In this document: positions 22,951-61,813 of the stretch, piece after piece | How the letters are laid out: each line of letters begins with the position of its first letter | Position numbering within the stretch: position 1 is the first letter of the stretch | Virus record (IMG/VR): IMGVR_UViG_3300047375_000738 | Strand: one strand, 5' to 3' | Origin: a virus | Taxonomy: Duplodnaviria; Caudoviricetes | DNA: 64,000 bases | Position numbers and translations under genes: made by a program | Notes under the pieces: generated by a model | Told to the model about the DNA's origin: nothing | The model's input: the letters and a program-made list of their open reading frames with translations, nothing else | Database searches by the model: none

Positions 22951-23141
22951 AGATTAAAAGGTTCTTTGTAACCTTCCTCAACAAGACTTGCAAAATATTC
23001 TTGGGCACGATCTAAGTCGTGATAATCGTGCTGCTTTTCAAACTCAAACGCATCAAAGTGATTAAACACTGCCCGGTTATCGTTGACTTTAACCAACACA
23101 CTGTTAGCATTTTTTTGTAATACACATTCTTTAAGTTTCAT
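22947..23141 (-). CDS. Hypothetical protein
   Basis: ORF track, ATGA overlap. Confidence 0.55.
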   Translation of the reverse strand: MKLKECVLQKNANSVLVKVNDNRAVFNHFDAFEFEKQHDYHDLDRAQEYFASLVEEGYKEPFNL

Positions 23142-24327
23142 CGTTACCTACCAGTTTTGCTATCTTAGGGTTGACATCTACAAGTGCAGTATTGCCCTTA
23201 CTGTCAAGTTTACTTATAACATATCTACGCAGATTGTCAACCTCTTTTCGTGAATTTATTCGCCAATTTTTGTTTTTTATTTCTTCAACATGCTGTGTGT
23301 CTATAAACTTACTAACTTGCTGATCAATTGAGTTGTTGGTTAAAAACTGTTTTATGTAGTCTTTTTGTGCATAGCTTAACAAACTAATATTGTAATAGAT
23401 AGGATCGTGGCAAAAATTAACATTTACGCTTTCATGCGGAATACCTACCTTAGTACACCATTCAAGCATGTCAGTACCGCTTAGACAGTTTAACAAGCTC
23501 ACAGTGTATGTTATACGTATGTCAATGTCCTGCTGTAATGCGTGTACAATGTTATCTTCAACACGTTGCCATTTAGCAGGCGGACGTTGGTATTCGTAGT
23601 TAGCGCCTATATCGTCAATACTATAATGCAATTGTATGCGTTTAAACTGTGCAAACTGTTCTAGCAATTTATCTGTTAGTTTAAAGGTACCATTGGTATG
23701 ATATTTAATCCAAATATCTTTTGCTTTGTCTTGTGCAATTAAATGCTCTAGTAATTGGTTGTGTTCTTCGATTAAAAATGGTTCACCGCCGCTCAAATAT
23801 AGTACTTCTGCATTATTGCTTATGTTTAGAATACTATTCCAATTATCCTGCTGTTGTACCCAATTTTTTCCGTAGCTAGGATTTATAACCTGGCCAAATA
23901 ATTCTAATTCAGTAGCTTCCCACTTTTTTGTAAATTCACTATTGCATATCTTACATTTTAAGTTACAATGATTACCTAGTTTAACATCAAAAAGTACAGG
24001 GTTTGGAGCATCAGTTGAATCCATAAGGTGTAAATGTTTGCCGTGTATTTCAAGTTCACGCTGTCTGCGACTTAGTAAGCCTTGGTCTTCTTGGCTAAAG
24101 CATTTGTTGCATCCTGCTGGCCGTTCGCCGTTGATGTATTGCTGTCTTAGTGCTTTGTATTCTGCATTGTTCCAAACAGTTTCTAGTGTTGTATCTTTGT
24201 TGTTTAAATCTAGTTTGTTGCCCTGTTCGTCTGTAAACTCATACAAGTATTCGGCACAGGGTCTTACATAGCCTGTTGCACATACTTCAATTTGTGTCCA
24301 CGGTACAATGCACTTAGGTAATGTCAT
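23131..24327 (-). CDS. Radical SAM protein with N-terminal SPASM/twitch domain
   Basis: CNLKCKIC, YLSGGEPF, HTNGT; N-terminal CIVPW...RPC...GCNKC; start reassigned to MTLPKC. Confidence 0.88.
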   Translation of the reverse strand: MTLPKCIVPWTQIEVCATGYVRPCAEYLYEFTDEQGNKLDLNNKDTTLETVWNNAEYKALRQQYINGERPAGCNKCFSQEDQGLLSRRQRELEIHGKHLHLMDSTDAPNPVLFDVKLGNHCNLKCKICNSEFTKKWEATELELFGQVINPSYGKNWVQQQDNWNSILNISNNAEVLYLSGGEPFLIEEHNQLLEHLIAQDKAKDIWIKYHTNGTFKLTDKLLEQFAQFKRIQLHYSIDDIGANYEYQRPPAKWQRVEDNIVHALQQDIDIRITYTVSLLNCLSGTDMLEWCTKVGIPHESVNVNFCHDPIYYNISLLSYAQKDYIKQFLTNNSIDQQVSKFIDTQHVEEIKNKNWRINSRKEVDNLRRYVISKLDSKGNTALVDVNPKIAKLVGNDET

Positions 24328-25048
24328 ACTTGTCCCGTAAGAAAGGCATAATAACTTTTTCAGAAAAGAGTTTGTGCTGATAATTTCCAGGATGAGGATC
24401 TCTTGGATGGGGGAAACGGTCGTTACAATTTTCAACACACCATCCGTGTTCACTACTCACAGGTAAAAAATATTCAAAATCTATCATGTCTTTGAGATAG
24501 TCGTGCTGGTAATTTGCACGATCATCAGGCCTGTCTTTTAATACTTCATCTGTATAAGTGGTCATGAAATATTTAATATTATAATTTTGTAAAAACCACT
24601 GTGTTCTCAATATGTTTTCATAAGCATATATACTATCGCTTGGATGATTTTGATATCTCTTATACCAATTCTGTGAAAACAAACTATTAAATCCTACACC
24701 AATTAACACCCACCAACTTTGTTGTTGGGCATGTACTTGAGGCCATAAATGAGGACTGGTATCGCTATCAAACGGTTCGCATATTCCTAATCCTTCAGGC
24801 TTATCAATTAAAAATGCTCTACGTTCTTTGCCACTCCACATTATACCAACCAACATGTCTTCAGGGTTAACCCCTGCTTTTAAACATTCGTTTACTTGCC
24901 AAATAACTTTTCGACTAATTAAGTCGTTGCCCGAACTACCCACACCGGTTTGGTAATGAGTGTCATATTGTAGTCTATCTTGTAAATGCACAGGCCAGCA
25001 CATACTGTCAGCACTGAAGCTGCATCCTCCAGTAATTAATACTTTCAT
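24314..25048 (-). CDS. SGNH/GDSL-like protein
   Basis: ITGGCSFS, GSSGND, DPHPGNYQH. Confidence 0.55.
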   Translation of the reverse strand: MKVLITGGCSFSADSMCWPVHLQDRLQYDTHYQTGVGSSGNDLISRKVIWQVNECLKAGVNPEDMLVGIMWSGKERRAFLIDKPEGLGICEPFDSDTSPHLWPQVHAQQQSWWVLIGVGFNSLFSQNWYKRYQNHPSDSIYAYENILRTQWFLQNYNIKYFMTTYTDEVLKDRPDDRANYQHDYLKDMIDFEYFLPVSSEHGWCVENCNDRFPHPRDPHPGNYQHKLFSEKVIMPFLRDKYDIT

Positions 25049-25200
25049 TTGTTATCAATTCTTCCTTTGGTTCCACAATGTGGGCAATGCCAAGTTGTTC
25101 TGTCTGCACAATACTTGTCTTCCATTGTTGCAAACGTAAACCATCCTTTACATTTTATACATGTTAGATGCCAAATAATTTCTTTATGAGCTTTAAACAT
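25045..25200 (-). CDS. Zinc-ribbon microprotein (51 aa, MFKAHKEIIWHLTCIKCKGWFTFATMEDKYCADRTTWHCPHCGTKGRIDNK)
   Basis: Hand-translated; CxxC...CPHC; stop overlaps the next ATG (ATGA). Confidence 0.7.
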   Translation of the reverse strand: MFKAHKEIIWHLTCIKCKGWFTFATMEDKYCADRTTWHCPHCGTKGRIDNK

Positions 25201-25214
25201 AAACATATTTATAT

Positions 25215-25292
25215 TGGTCGGGGATGCAAGATTCGAACTTGCGATCTTCTGCTCCCAAAGCAGACGGATTAACCAGACTTTCCTAATCCCCG
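25215..25292 (-). tRNA. tRNA-Pro(UGG)
   Basis: Cloverleaf; anticodon arm TCTGC-TT TGG GA-GCAGA; GTTCGAAT; encoded CCA. Confidence 0.95.
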
Positions 25293-25294
25293 TT

Positions 25295-25371
25295 TGGTGC
25301 GCCCGGTAGGACTCGAACCTACGATCTACCCGTTATGAGCGGGGAGCTTTAACCAACTAAGCTACAGGCGC
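25295..25371 (-). tRNA. tRNA-Ile2(CAU, lysidine type) rather than tRNA-Met
   Basis: GCGCCTGTAGCTTAGTTGG...CCCCG-CT CAT AA-CGGGT...CACCA resembles alphaproteobacterial Ile2; all Ile codons in the upstream leader are AUA. Confidence 0.85.
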
Positions 25372-25375
25372 AATT

Positions 25376-25449
25376 TGGCATCGGTGCAGGGAGTCGAACC
25401 CCGGCTTTCAGTTTTGGAGACTGACGTGCTACCGTAACACTTCACCGAC
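25376..25449 (-). tRNA. tRNA-Trp(CCA)
   Basis: TCAGT-CT CCA AA-ACTGA; G discriminator; encoded CCA. Confidence 0.95.
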
Positions 25450-25486
25450 AAAAAAAGCCCCTAATAAAATTAATTACTAGGGGCTT
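25450..25486 (-). terminator. Intrinsic terminator (attenuator) directly 5' of tRNA-Trp
   Basis: AAGCCCCTAG-loop-TTAGGGGCTT; U7 tract at 25456-25450. Confidence 0.9.
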
Positions 25487-25514
25487 GTTGAAATAACTTT
25501 TTAAAAAGTCACAT

Positions 25515-25577
25515 TCAAGACGTACCCCGGTTATTCGGTGGCCAATATATTATACATATTGATATAGTCTTGAGCAT
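25515..25577 (-). CDS. Attenuator leader peptide MLKTISICIIYWPPNNRGTS (20 aa)
   Basis: SD AAGGA 8 nt before ATG; codons ATA-TCA-ATA-TGT-ATA-ATA-TAT-TGG-CCA-CCG; terminator/antiterminator pair downstream. Confidence 0.85.
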   Translation of the reverse strand: MLKTISICIIYWPPNNRGTS

Positions 25578-25604
25578 GTTAAAATTCCTTATTTCTTACG
25601 TTCT

Positions 25605-25612
25605 TATTTATA
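25605..25612 (-). promoter_or_regulatory. T4-type late promoter upstream of the leader peptide
   Basis: Exact TATAAATA. Confidence 0.75.
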
Positions 25613-25614
25613 TA

Positions 25615-25820
25615 AAATGATAGGTTGGACTCTGTGAATACCAACAACCCCTTTGTAGAGCCACGCTCAAAAACAGGGAGCTTCATATTAAACGGTTACG
25701 TCTAAAAATACAACTTCGTATCTCTACGCTCTTGCATTGCCACTACAGCTATGAACCAAGTTACAACCTCTACGGATTGCCATTCCTTGCACTATCTAAC
25801 TTAGGATATCTCCTAACTTA
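25615..25820 (-). ncRNA. Candidate structured ncRNA (~200 nt), family unknown
   Basis: No convincing ORF; own promoter; long-range helices GATAG/CTATC, GCAATCC/GGGTTGT, GTAGAG/CTCTAC, TTCATA/TATGAA. Confidence 0.5.
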
Positions 25821-25827
25821 TGTACTT

Positions 25828-25856
25828 AATATAACAGCCTTTACTACCATTGTCAA
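25828..25856 (-). promoter_or_regulatory. Sigma70 promoter driving the ncRNA, leader and tRNA unit
   Basis: TTGACA-N17-TATATT. Confidence 0.8.
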
Positions 25857-25871
25857 CCACTTTTTTGCATT

Positions 25872-26075
25872 TTATTTAAAATTCTTTTCAGTTCCGTCAG
25901 TTATTTTCTTTGCTAATCTGTATGGGAGGAACCCAAACATAAAAGGAAAAAATGCATGAATAATTCCTGTGATAAAAACTAATAGTGCTATACATGCAAA
26001 ATATACGGCATAGAAAAGATGCTCAAAATATGTTGTGCTTGCTTTCTGTAAATGCTTAAAATCAAATATTTTCAT
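25872..26075 (-). CDS. DUF6356-like small membrane protein
   Basis: HL...TYFEH...IIHAFFPF pattern. Confidence 0.6.
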   Translation of the reverse strand: MKIFDFKHLQKASTTYFEHLFYAVYFACIALLVFITGIIHAFFPFMFGFLPYRLAKKITDGTEKNFK

Positions 26076-26090
26076 ATGATTCCTTTGTTA

Positions 26091-26165
26091 TGGTAGTCCC
26101 TACGGGAGTCGAACCCGTCTTTCAAGGTTGAAAACCTGGCGTCCTAACCGATAGACGAAGGGACC
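26091..26165 (-). tRNA. tRNA-Glu(UUC)
   Basis: GGTCCCTTCGTCTATCGGTTAGGAC; loop TT TTC AA; encoded CCA. Confidence 0.9.
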
Positions 26166-26419: not shown

Positions 26420-26788
26420 TTATTTATTTCGACCTTTAAATGTGTCTGTCTGTGAATGACAGTTAGGACACAACAGTCGGAGATTACTTGGCACATTGTT
26501 CTTATTGTTGCCATCTATATGATCGCACTCTAATACAATGTCTTTGCCGTTATGCTTGCTAATACCACAGCACTCGCAAGTGTAACCTCTTTCACGGGCT
26601 AAGTACCCGCTTTTGTCTTTAATCCAACCTGGAATGTTATTACCCCAAGTATAGTCTTCGTTAAGCCATCTGGTAATTCTGGCTTCTCTTGTGGCAGCAC
26701 CTTGGCAAGCATTGTTACAATACTTGTTAGTGTTTTGCCTAACCCATACATTCTCTTTGCCGCAGTGTAAACAGTTATAAGTTTTCAT
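26420..26788 (-). mobile_element. Free-standing HNH homing endonuclease inserted in the tRNA cluster
   Basis: LECDHIDGNNKNNVPSNLRLLCPNCHSQT; own GATAAATA motif; flanked by a duplicated tRNA-Thr 5' end. Confidence 0.85.
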
Positions 26789-26951: not shown

Positions 26952-27042
26952 TGGCGGGCAGCCAGGGATTCGAACCCTGGGAACGCTATTAACGTTCGTC
27001 CGCTTAGTAGGCGGGTGCTTTAAACCACTCAGCCAACTGCCC
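26952..27042 (-). tRNA. tRNA-Ser with unusual ACU anticodon
   Basis: CCCGC-CT ACT AA-GCGGA; long variable arm; G discriminator; encoded CCA. Confidence 0.88.
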
Positions 27043-36504: not shown

Positions 36505-38550
36505 TTATTTACTTGTGGCTACAAAGATGCCATTCCAATCTGAAGGCAAATCCTGTGTTTTCATATATTCACAACGTTCAATCCACATATCGTAATACTT
36601 TTCCATCTTGTGATCAAAGTGTGTATACAACATCTTACACTTGTCTATAGCGTCATCAAAACGCTGCGCACGATAGTCTTCGTGCATTTGTTCATGTTTC
36701 TTCTGCGCACTACGCCATGCAGGATATGGCTTATCCAACACTGTGTAAATTTTAAGTCCTACACTTTTGCCTTTGACTTGCAAGTCATCTACTTTGAGGT
36801 AGAAGAAATCTGTTCTAGTTGCTTCGTATGTAGATTCTCCTACAAGTAACAAACACCCATACTCTTTACATTTGCTTTCTACTCTTGCTGCGGTGCTGAC
36901 AGCGTCTCCAAGGACATCATATGAATGACGTTTAGTACTTCCCATCTCACCAAGGTACCCCAGCCCTGTGTTGATGCCAGCGCCCATACCAACAGCAGGA
37001 CGACCATCAGGTATAATAACTTCTTCATTAAACTTCTCCACTGCTTTAAGCATGTCTAAGCCACACTGTACTGCTGTACGAGGATGGTTAGGATCATCTA
37101 TAGGCGCATTGTGTATGTGCATACTAGCATCGCCTATGTACTTGATTATCATTCCGTCTGACTCTAACACAGGTTCTGTAATAGCATCCATGTAGCCATT
37201 CATAATACGTGTGAGTCCTTGTACGTCATCTCCAAAACTTTCTCCTAGTGGTGTAAATCCACGCAAGTCTGAGAATACAATACTTACATTACGCTTAGTG
37301 CCCAGTTTAATAAGCTCTGGCGACTCCTGTAGTAGTCTAACCACTGTTGGTGATGCATAACCTTCGAATTGCTTTTTGATGGCTTGCTTTTGTAAGAACT
37401 CGTCGACGAACTTGACAATGTATCGTTTGAGCCCAACGAGCAAGATGAAAGCACTGATAACAGCGCCATCGATAAGAATATTTTGTGTATTGAAAACATA
37501 TATGCTCCCTCCTATAAACCCGCCCACGGACAACACAAAGAAGGCTATGCCTACAAATGTCCAACGGGCGAGTATGATTAACAAAACGCCGGCTGCAACT
37601 AGAGCTGCTAGTTCTGCCCACTGCTCTGCGTCTGGATGTCTGCTAATATTTGATTCATTAAACACTGTTCCTAGCATTGCTGCCTGTATTTCGTGTGGAA
37701 ATACACTGCCTGCTGCTGTTGCTAGTGGCTGTGTAAGCCCTGCTGCTGTTGGTCCTACAAACACTATACCGCCAGCAAAGTCATCTGGTAAGTCAACTGC
37801 GCTCACGCTTTTGCTGCGCTGACTCCAGTCTATCCATACTTCGCCTGTGGGGCTTGTTTGTATTATACCATATGCTGGTATGCGTAGTTTATCTACACCC
37901 ATAGGTGATAGTTTAATTTGGAAGCTAGGATCGCCTGCTAGTACACGTAGCACTTCCATAGTAACATTTGGATATAATGTACCACTAGATTCAACTACTA
38001 GAGGTATACGTCTAGTAACACCGTCTACTTCCGGCCAACTGTTTGTTATTCCACTACCTACTGCGTTGAATTCAATATCTGGTACATTTGCGATGATTCC
38101 TGGAACACTAGGAATAGTATAAAGAAAGTCGCTGTTAACAATAGTAGCGCCTGGATTGACTGGTTCATTTTTGTTGTCCTCCGCACCTAACATAGTAACT
38201 ATAACAGGTAATTGCTGCATTGTCAAGCCTAATGTAGCATCTTCACCTGACCTGTCTTCTTCCGACATCAATACATTGAAAACCACTAGTCCAGCGCCTC
38301 TGGCATATAAGTCCTCTATAAGGCTACCATAATCACCTCTCGGCCACGGCCATTGTCCGTAAGCCTCTAAACTTGGTTCATCGATGTTCACTGTGTAAAT
38401 GTTGTTTTCAACAGGTTGTTGATTTACAATAAGTGTATCAAAGTAGCGTAGTCGTATGCTTTCTATAAATGCTGGATTAAGATAGTATACATAACTCAGC
38501 ACACCTAATAATAAAACACTCCAAAGCGGGCTGAACAGTACTTTTCTCAT
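36505..38550 (-). CDS. Membrane class III adenylate cyclase with CHASE2 sensor domain
   Basis: CHASE2 (VNIDEPSLEAYGQWPWPR, DGVTRRIPL); three TMs; FSDLRGFT, KYIGDA, YDVLGDAVSTAARVES. Confidence 0.93.
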   Translation of the reverse strand: MRKVLFSPLWSVLLLGVLSYVYYLNPAFIESIRLRYFDTLIVNQQPVENNIYTVNIDEPSLEAYGQWPWPRGDYGSLIEDLYARGAGLVVFNVLMSEEDRSGEDATLGLTMQQLPVIVTMLGAEDNKNEPVNPGATIVNSDFLYTIPSVPGIIANVPDIEFNAVGSGITNSWPEVDGVTRRIPLVVESSGTLYPNVTMEVLRVLAGDPSFQIKLSPMGVDKLRIPAYGIIQTSPTGEVWIDWSQRSKSVSAVDLPDDFAGGIVFVGPTAAGLTQPLATAAGSVFPHEIQAAMLGTVFNESNISRHPDAEQWAELAALVAAGVLLIILARWTFVGIAFFVLSVGGFIGGSIYVFNTQNILIDGAVISAFILLVGLKRYIVKFVDEFLQKQAIKKQFEGYASPTVVRLLQESPELIKLGTKRNVSIVFSDLRGFTPLGESFGDDVQGLTRIMNGYMDAITEPVLESDGMIIKYIGDASMHIHNAPIDDPNHPRTAVQCGLDMLKAVEKFNEEVIIPDGRPAVGMGAGINTGLGYLGEMGSTKRHSYDVLGDAVSTAARVESKCKEYGCLLLVGESTYEATRTDFFYLKVDDLQVKGKSVGLKIYTVLDKPYPAWRSAQKKHEQMHEDYRAQRFDDAIDKCKMLYTHFDHKMEKYYDMWIERCEYMKTQDLPSDWNGIFVATSK

Positions 38551-61101: not shown

Positions 61102-61432
61102 ATGTTTCGCCTGTTTCACGGAAGAAGTTTTCACTCCAAAATGCTTTGTCGTCAATCCATACATCGTAGTTTTCTTTTTTGCCTACGCTGAGTTCATGAT
61201 ACTTTGCACCCCAACCCTCTAATTGGTTCTTGGTTAGGTCGTAATAGTCAACGCCACTAACACACCCGCGAGCAGTCATATACTTAATTGTATGTCCTGC
61301 ATCGTACAATGCATTTACTCGTGCAATGCGTTCTGGCATTGGAATATGATTTGCATAATCCTTCTTGCCGCCGCTGTCTGGAATAATTACTTCCTTGCAG
61401 ATCGTACCGTCGATATCAATTACATATTTCAT
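61094..61432 (-). CDS. HAD-superfamily phosphatase (capsule-biosynthesis type)
   Basis: DIDGTIC, TARG, K, IDDK. Confidence 0.85.
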   Translation of the reverse strand: MKYVIDIDGTICKEVIIPDSGGKKDYANHIPMPERIARVNALYDAGHTIKYMTARGCVSGVDYYDLTKNQLEGWGAKYHELSVGKKENYDVWIDDKAFWSENFFRETGETYE

Positions 61433-61449
61433 TAAACGTCCTTTATATT

Positions 61450-61755
61450 AGAGTGGCACTTCTGTTGCTAGGCAGTACCCGCCCCCACATACCCTTAGGC
61501 TGCTAATGCCATTTCTGGCGCATAATTGTTATTTGCAATTATAAAGTTTGACCAATAACGCAGTCATCCGGTTAACTCCACTTCACTTTCACACCTGTCG
61601 ATCCTAGTTCTGCCCCATCATAAACATACGACTTGCGGCTTTCGGCCCTTGTCCTATGCACAGGAAAGTAGGTGCATCTACTCTCATATGTTTATGGTGG
61701 AGCAGCGCGGTACTGCCCCGCGGTCCAGTATGTGTCTACGTTGCTTCAACGTCAA
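61450..61755 (-). ncRNA. ssrA: Circularly permuted two-piece tmRNA; tag (A)ANNNYAPEMALAA
   Basis: Acceptor piece ends GCTGCTCCACCA (61695) with T-loop GGCAGTA; IVS 61617-61694; coding piece starts GGGGCAGAACTAGGATCGAC (61616); G3-U70 pair; tag ORF 61495-61536. Confidence 0.93.
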
Positions 61756-61760
61756 CATAT

Positions 61761-61791
61761 TATTTATAACATAGTTTTGTAAGCATGTCAA
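61761..61791 (-). promoter_or_regulatory. Overlapping early (TTGACA-N17-TATAAA) and late (TATAAATA) promoter for tmRNA
   Basis: -35 at 61786-61791; TATAAATA at 61761-61768. Confidence 0.75.
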
Positions 61792-61813
61792 CCACGAAGA
61801 TATAAATATTAGC

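Follow-up and report, generated by a model that had tools for sequence, protein, structure and literature searches.

Here we describe a short leader that precedes an operon of transfer RNA (tRNA) genes in a 64,000-nucleotide (nt) stretch of phage DNA (IMG/VR record IMGVR_UViG_3300047375_000738, analyzed whole and hereafter called 'the window'), and that is quite likely a ribosome-mediated leader-peptide attenuator of the trp type, providing feedback on tRNA supply. These tRNAs are probably made only when ribosomes are slow to read the leader codons, a view suggested by about a hundred related contigs in which leader codons and tRNA genes vary in step. What is observed directly is the set of parts and their conservation, the coding constraint on the leader, covariation within the terminated fold, and the way in which leader codons vary with the tRNA cargo. 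The window belongs to a marine myophage whose nearest proteins are those of Methylophilales phage Melnitz (51% identity) and Pelagibacter phage HTVC008M, and near-identical DNA occurs in seawater metagenomes from more than a dozen studies.

All parts of the element lie on the minus strand, in order from 25612 to 25215. A Shine-Dalgarno (SD) sequence, AAGGA (25590-25586), stands 8 nt 5' of the ATG of a leader open reading frame (ORF) of 20 codons plus stop (25577-25515; ATG at 25577, TGA at 25517-25515) with the predicted peptide MLKTISICIIYWPPNNRGTS. Its codons read ATG CTC AAG ACT ATA TCA ATA TGT ATA ATA TAT TGG CCA CCG AAT AAC CGG GGT ACG TCT TGA; the four AUA codons, UGG, and CCA-CCG were exactly as quoted in an earlier reading of this DNA made from the letters alone (the sequence-only reading), which had also listed the SD sequence, the ORF, the terminator and the three tRNA genes, all of which are present where it placed them. 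The candidate sensing codons, four AUA, one UGU and one UGG, occupy 25565-25542. An intrinsic terminator (25486-25450) follows, with a 13-bp GC-rich stem (25486-25455) and a run of seven U residues (25456-25450) that directly contacts G1 of tRNA-Trp (25449), which leaves no spacer and no place for a further promoter. Three tRNA genes, each called by both ARAGORN and Rfam, complete the unit: tRNA-Trp(CCA) at 25449-25376, a tRNA with a CAT anticodon at 25371-25295, and tRNA-Pro(UGG) at 25292-25215.

The content of the leader exceeds chance in the direction of these three tRNAs. ATA makes up 4 of its 19 codons, against 1.87% in this phage's genes, and under the phage's own codon usage the (post hoc) probability of at least four ATA codons in 19 is 4e-4, and that of at least seven of 19 codons being cognate to the three tRNAs is 3e-5.

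ARAGORN calls the second tRNA Met, but its acceptor stem carries Ile marks instead. Acceptor-stem marks were used because BLAST against Escherichia coli tRNAs was uninformative, the best matches being to tRNA-Val. The marks of tRNA-Ile(CAT) are G3-C70 (rather than C-G), C4-G69 and C5-G68 (PMC1635315), and all three are present in the window's tRNA (GCGCCUG...CGGGCGC), in which positions 1 and 72 are paired, as in elongator-type tRNAs. In the leader comparisons described below, the CAT tRNA also acts like the unambiguous tRNA-Ile(UAU). By its acceptor marks it is most likely tRNA-Ile2, the lysidine-modified decoder of AUA, in agreement with the earlier assignment.

Homologues were collected by pattern scans, two over viral contigs and a third over metagenome contigs, and 188 loci with the element, 107 of them distinct, were found in phage and marine contigs. 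Among cultured phages (50,697 phage records searched with megablast and blastn) the leader was absent, the matches being only to a tRNA or to the terminator hairpin, and Melnitz, the nearest isolate by protein, has a tRNA-Trp gene without such a leader upstream. The element appears to be limited to phages of marine and related waters; its apparent confinement to phages follows from the fact that the only match in representative bacterial genomes was a chance one in unrelated sequence. That match (L188), the sole one among 185,579 bacterial species, lacks a neighboring leader ORF, terminator or tRNA and was discarded. Relatives of the 244-aa gene neighboring the element were tried as a comparison set and set aside as too distant and unlinked to it.

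Across these homologues, the leader and the genes behind it vary together. UGG is found in 107/107 distinct leaders, and tRNA-Trp is the first tRNA 3' of the element in 179 of 181 loci. The genes behind the leader are those for Trp, Cys, Pro(UGG) and an AUA decoder; in the same phages, tRNA genes for Thr, Leu, Gly, Ser-GCU/ACU, Ala and Asn lie upstream of it. When leaders with at least two ATA codons are set against downstream tRNA genes with a tat or cat anticodon, 20 loci have both, 76 have neither, one has the leader feature only, and none has the tRNA only. Shared ancestry was taken into account with a tree built from the flanks, the terminator and tRNA-Trp, from which the trait columns had been removed. 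On this tree the AUA-rich leader and the AUA-decoding tRNA change 11 and 10 times, respectively, and a single clade of ATA-rich leaders is rejected (approximately unbiased test, p 6e-7). In edge-disjoint pairs on the tree, AUA codons and their tRNA differ in the same way in 10 pairs, in opposite ways in none, and show no difference in one (p 0.002); the corresponding counts are 6/0/1 for Cys (p 0.03), 6/0/2 for UCR codons against Ser(UGA) (p 0.03), and 3/0/2 for Gln. Shuffling the tRNA sets among leaders leaves 121 +/- 7 cognate codons, compared with 186 observed. The question raised by the sequence-only reading, whether control codons change with the tRNA set, therefore has a positive answer for AUA, Cys and UCR codons, each of which switches with its tRNA on some 6-10 independent branches.

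The RNA of the region is predicted to fold much more stably than shuffled sequence (z -6.0), and three mutually exclusive folds are predicted in it and in all homologues. In the first, helix P1 pairs its 5' strand (25578-25567; start codon and codons 2-4) with the stop-codon region, thereby enclosing the entire ORF. Inside it lie hairpin P2 (25561-25543), which bears AUA and UGU codons, and helix P3, formed by segment 1 (GCCACCG from the UGG-CCA-CCG codons, 25542-25536) with segment 2 (GGGGUACGUCUUGAAUGUG, 25528-25510). Segment 2 includes the stop codon and supplies the 3' strands of both P3 and P1 as well as the 5' strand of the second fold, an antiterminator hairpin (25528-25480) with the pairings GGGGU/GCCCC, UGAA/UUCA and GUGACUUU/AAAGUUAU. 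The third is the terminator, of which the 5' arm is segment 3 and the 3' arm segment 4. Segment 2 is thus common to the 1:2 fold and the antiterminator, and the terminator 5' arm is common to the antiterminator and the terminator. The 1:2 fold, consisting of P1, the inner hairpin and CCACCG/CGGGG, was proposed in the sequence-only reading and is the minimum-energy fold (-21.5 kcal/mol, z -3.6). The antiterminator is the minimum-energy fold of 25529-25476 (-16.8 kcal/mol, z -3.45), to be compared with -19.8 kcal/mol (z -5.3) for the terminator in the window.

Compensatory change supports the terminated state (P1, P2, P3, apical hairpin and terminator). In an alignment of homologues, 93% of its cells are paired, against 35-53% with slid partners, and 93 cells are compensatory, against 35 +/- 5 in shuffles, none of 500 of which reached the observed value. 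Such changes fall in the upper stem of the terminator and in three pairs of P2. P1 was missed by RNAalifold on a MAFFT alignment because of register shifts and was derived from per-sequence folds; within it, the change from ATG to GTG is matched by U to C in the 3' strand (pair 33-112: A-U in 46 rows, G-C in 15). Read by eye, the change from TGA to TAA accompanies a change of codon 2 or 3 on the opposite strand, and in leaders beginning GTG ATT AAG the accompanying P1 change is a synonymous one, ATC to ATT; the aligned column pair at the site of the stop change (37/107) has one-sided changes only. P1 on this evidence shows an apparent joint constraint of coding and structure.

The antiterminator proposed earlier has its energy and its conservation in its favor. 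The GGGG of segment 2 is invariant in 61/61 alignment rows, and when the sequence upstream of it is masked, mimicking a stalled ribosome, GGGG pairs with the CCCC of the terminator in 61/61 homologues, at a median of -19.6 kcal/mol compared with -19.3 for the terminator. Variant terminators (GCCCUGUA, GCCUCUAG and GCCCCC) retain a C/U run able to pair with GGGG, which fits the antiterminator model without proving it.

The following sequence of events would account for these features. Transcription would start upstream, in most relatives at a promoter of the sigma70 type and in the window probably at the promoter of a manA-like RNA described below, perhaps also at TATAAATA, and a ribosome would load at AAGGA/AUG while the polymerase proceeds. 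A ribosome that reaches the stop codon, within segment 2, would cover GGGGUACGUCUUGA, so that the 3:4 terminator forms and transcription stops one base short of tRNA-Trp. Without a loaded ribosome, segment 2 and the start codon would be held in P1 and P3, and the terminator would again form. A ribosome stalled at AUA, UGU or UGG, 10-25 nt before GGGG, would block P1 and P3 and leave segment 2 free to pair with the terminator 5' arm, allowing the polymerase to proceed into tRNA-Trp, tRNA-Ile2 and tRNA-Pro. The tRNAs so produced would relieve the stall, closing a negative feedback loop on tRNA supply. Stalling, the switch and the cause of the shortage are what we infer; as to the last, a host defense directed at tRNAs or limited lysidine modification is a purely conjectural trigger, and scarce host tRNA would be another conceivable one. 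On balance we lean toward the broader view that phages carry a modular, re-writable sensor of tRNA demand, each tRNA cassette having its own negative feedback loop. Such a sensor might serve as a counter-measure to tRNA depletion by host defense or to a weak supply of lysidine-modified tRNA-Ile2.

Several points weigh against the attenuator reading. The antiterminator, its weak point, is backed by conservation and energy but not by covariation: pair counts gave none beyond conservation, its core being invariant, and chimeras of antiterminator halves (-18.9 kcal/mol) fold as well as the native pairs (-19.4 kcal/mol). The Pro codons fail to follow tRNA-Pro (one pair the same way, three opposite, 12 without difference), and Arg, Glu and Gly codons likewise vary independently of their tRNAs. 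With well-supported branches alone, the association is reduced to 4/4 pairs, an underpowered comparison (p 0.125). One relative (L010; IMGVR_UViG_3300017719_000109) has three ATA codons in its leader and only tRNA-Trp and tRNA-Cys, and thus no AUA decoder, within 4.5 kb downstream. Judging from footprint geometry, a stall at CCA or CCG would probably cover GGGG, so that not every matching codon can be a sensor; this agrees with the failure of the Pro codons to track. CCA-CCG, counted among the control codons by the sequence-only reading, is probably structural, as segment 1, rather than sensing. Finally, extra tRNA is no help if the shortage is one of amino acid rather than of tRNA.

Some of the same points would be expected if the element were a translation-coupled attenuator responding to overall translation capacity or to the coupling of transcription and translation, as in pyrBI, with the codon match partly a by-product of shared codon usage. 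Such a device would equally possess the ORF, the SD sequence and the alternative folds; the Pro, Arg, Glu and Gly codons do not follow their tRNAs, and the W-P-P stretch is also structural. This explanation is nevertheless unlikely. It does not predict that AUA, Cys and UCR codons switch with their own tRNA genes on independent branches, nor an ATA share of 4/19 against 1.9% in the genome. The leader switches, moreover, are not synonymous: they are amino-acid replacements, such as T-Y-I-T to I-C-I-I, with P2 still paired, and are not codon-usage drift.

Ribosome-mediated attenuation by slow reading of the leader, the explanation we prefer, presupposes that the leader is translated, and the coding signal is strong. 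Of the distinct start-to-stop regions compared, 89/89 keep frame 0 open between the aligned start and segment 2; the other two frames are open in 32/89 and 22/89. The start codon is ATG in 66 and GTG in 23, with no others, the stop is TGA, TAA or TAG, and AAGGA precedes the start in 76 of the 89. The same stop codon position inside the P1 3' strand is used by 83/89 variants, beginning 10 nt 3' of the GGGG run, and in these 83 the insertions and deletions are multiples of three; in-frame start-to-stop distances take six values between 51 and 66 nt, all multiples of three. The remaining six, off-frame, variants stop at most 13 nt from the usual place. Relatives have thus kept the SD sequence, the start codon and the reading frame of the ORF.

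That conservation, together with a Cys-, Trp- and Pro-rich ORF and a gene for a radical-SAM/SPASM enzyme 1 kb downstream in the window, could also suggest that the ORF encodes a working micro-peptide, for instance a precursor for that enzyme, and has a terminator of its own, the tRNAs being made by leaky read-through. We regard this as quite improbable. The conserved peptide positions, M-x-K/Q-T, W-(C)-P-P/S and G-M-S-stop, all correspond to codons in helices P1 and P3, and between these helix-bearing positions the peptide varies freely in sequence and length; the frameshifted variants keep the 5' part only. A conserved frame and stop with a peptide that is variable outside the helices is the pattern of a regulatory leader, apparently selected for reading to a fixed stop and not for a functional peptide. 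Of 106 related loci, 7 have the radical-SAM gene within 7.5 kb downstream and one has it upstream, and a linkage of 8/106, combined with the lack of peptide conservation outside the helices, led us to reject a precursor of a ribosomally synthesized and post-translationally modified peptide; it would also leave unexplained why the codons follow the tRNA cargo. Least probable of all is a non-coding structured 5' leader (a small RNA, or an element for processing or stability of the tRNA precursor) with an incidental ORF, which the strong fold (z -6.0), the covariation in P1, P2 and the terminator and the adjacency of another abundant structured RNA would suit, but which conflicts with a frame open in 89/89 against 22-32/89, indels in multiples of three in 83/89, exclusive ATG/GTG starts, nothing but stop codons at the end, and the conserved SD sequence.

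The leader's own promoter is of the sigma70 type in most relatives: TTGAC-N17-19-TAnnnT occurs upstream in 93/105 distinct relatives, 53-66 nt 5' of the start codon in those inspected. The sequence-only reading had placed a late promoter at TATAAATA (25612-25605), and the sequence is there, as a possible promoter of the T4 late type, but it is not conserved; it is found in 40/105 distinct relatives, mostly overlapping the -10 of the sigma70 promoter, and its role as a late promoter, while possible, is doubtful and gains no backing from conservation. In the window and its closest relatives (L153 and L181), the 3' end of a manA-like structured RNA replaces the leader's promoter. This RNA (25816-25614, minus strand) matches Rfam RF01745 over its full length at 45.7 bits (gathering score 55.2; E 2e-10) and is a probable divergent relative of manA. 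Before it stands a consensus sigma70-type promoter (25856-25828, minus strand), TTGACA-17-TATATT with a TG, 11 of 12 positions matching, which probably drives the manA-like RNA and, behind it, the leader. With the leader promoter replaced by an RNA that has its own promoter, the transcription unit in the window is most likely promoter, manA-like RNA, leader and tRNAs.

Parts of this stretch are present in four metatranscriptome runs, in contigs that cannot show 3' ends or exclude DNA. One assembled RNA contig, spanning 25375-25647, bridges the leader, the terminator and tRNA-Trp, and another bridges 25527-26154. Contigs confined to 25614-25856 reach depths of 116-307 in one marine metatranscriptome, compared with 17-30 in the flanks, which suggests that the manA-like RNA is an abundant stable RNA. 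A gene for a 53-aa zinc-ribbon protein (25045-25206, minus strand) lies downstream of the tRNAs in the window; among 48 relatives with a match to it, most of those listed have it just upstream of the leader promoter, a shift that is a local rearrangement accompanying the insertion of the manA-like RNA.

The element resembles the leaders trpL, hisL, pheL and leuL in its SD-led short ORF with codons of the sensed species, in predicted mutually exclusive 1:2, 2:3 and 3:4 pairings, in a stop codon at which a terminating ribosome would lie over segment 2, and in an intrinsic terminator before the regulated genes. In trp, the 2:3 and 3:4 pairings have energies of about -12 and -20 kcal/mol, of the same order as here. 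It differs from these attenuators in that the regulated genes are tRNA genes, the product of which would act directly on the sensor, and reside in a phage; in that start and stop codon are paired in an additional long-range helix, P1, around the whole ORF; and in having no sequence or Rfam relationship to them. A single leader that mixes codons matching a multi-product operon is familiar from thrL (Thr, Ile) and ilvL (Ile, Val, Leu), whereas the phage mix consists of AUA, UGU/UGC, UGG and, in some lineages, UCR or CAA, and is re-written with the tRNA cargo. Leader-peptide attenuation of a gene of the translation apparatus is known from pheM of pheST, which responds to the level of charged tRNA; there, unlike here, the target is a synthetase and the setting cellular. 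T-box elements share with the proposed device a terminator/antiterminator switch that responds to tRNA status upstream of translation-related genes, but they bind uncharged tRNA directly and without an ORF, in contrast to the conserved ORF of the phage element. Searches of Rfam found no match to the Trp, His, Thr, Leu or Phe leader models or to the T-box model at gathering score, and at E<=10 only chance-level matches, for example to L10_leader (25 bits; gathering score 44). The element thus seems to act like trpL, thrL, ilvL and pheM while being a member of no Rfam leader or T-box family.

Phage tRNA genes are usually viewed as cargo that is expressed constitutively and either fits codon usage or makes up for the loss of tRNAs to host defenses. 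Those of T4 are clustered and co-transcribed with the small structured RNAs species 1 and 2, and are matured by processing; the window is similar in that a structured RNA, here manA-like, precedes the unit, and we know of no leader ORF or attenuator described for T4. Searches of full text in PMC and bioRxiv, which do not cover subscription journals, found no description of leader-peptide control of tRNA genes, and to our knowledge there is no earlier case of tRNA genes controlled by translation of their own codons. If the proposed attenuation is true, it would be the first such case, and the phage would measure how fast particular codons are decoded and set its tRNA output accordingly. The broader view of a modular sensor, if true, would make this a general, so far undescribed class of tRNA gene regulation. 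The leader could then reveal which codons limit phage translation in uncultured hosts, and leaders across relatives may show the limiting tRNAs in abundant uncultured marine hosts, the co-variation of leader and cargo serving as a natural mutational series.

Other features of the tRNA region and its homologues deserve mention. In 27/107 relatives, though absent from the window, an insert of about 85 nt separates the terminator from tRNA-Trp (for example L026:1008-1090); its predicted fold is a four-way junction, cloverleaf-like and closed by a stem of 10 bp (-27.7 kcal/mol, z -3.7), and a U/A run comes next. The insert has no match in Rfam, and ARAGORN calls no tRNA in it. The tRNA-Ile(UAU) genes that follow AUA-rich leaders in seven relatives (L082, L142, L145, L149, L157, L165 and L177) are 92-94 nt long and carry an additional arm of some 20 nt 3' of the anticodon stem, which is unusual for an Ile tRNA. 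Upstream of the leader, at 26952-27042, the window has a tRNA-Ser with an unusual ACT anticodon that recurs in this position in many relatives and, if A34 is deaminated, could read more than AGU and AGC; an HNH homing-endonuclease gene (26420-26788) lies between tRNA-Thr and this tRNA-Ser. Downstream of the tRNAs are the genes for the 244-aa DUF6071 protein (24314-25048) and, overlapping it, the radical-SAM protein of 440 aa with an N-terminal SPASM domain (23131-24453). Farther away are a gene for a 681-aa protein (36505-38550) that is also present in Melnitz and HTVC008M, where it is annotated as an adenylate/guanylate cyclase domain protein, and a phage-borne, permuted two-piece transfer-messenger RNA of the alpha type (61404-61808) with the tag ANNNYAPEMALAA; like the others in this paragraph that belong to the window, both are on the minus strand.

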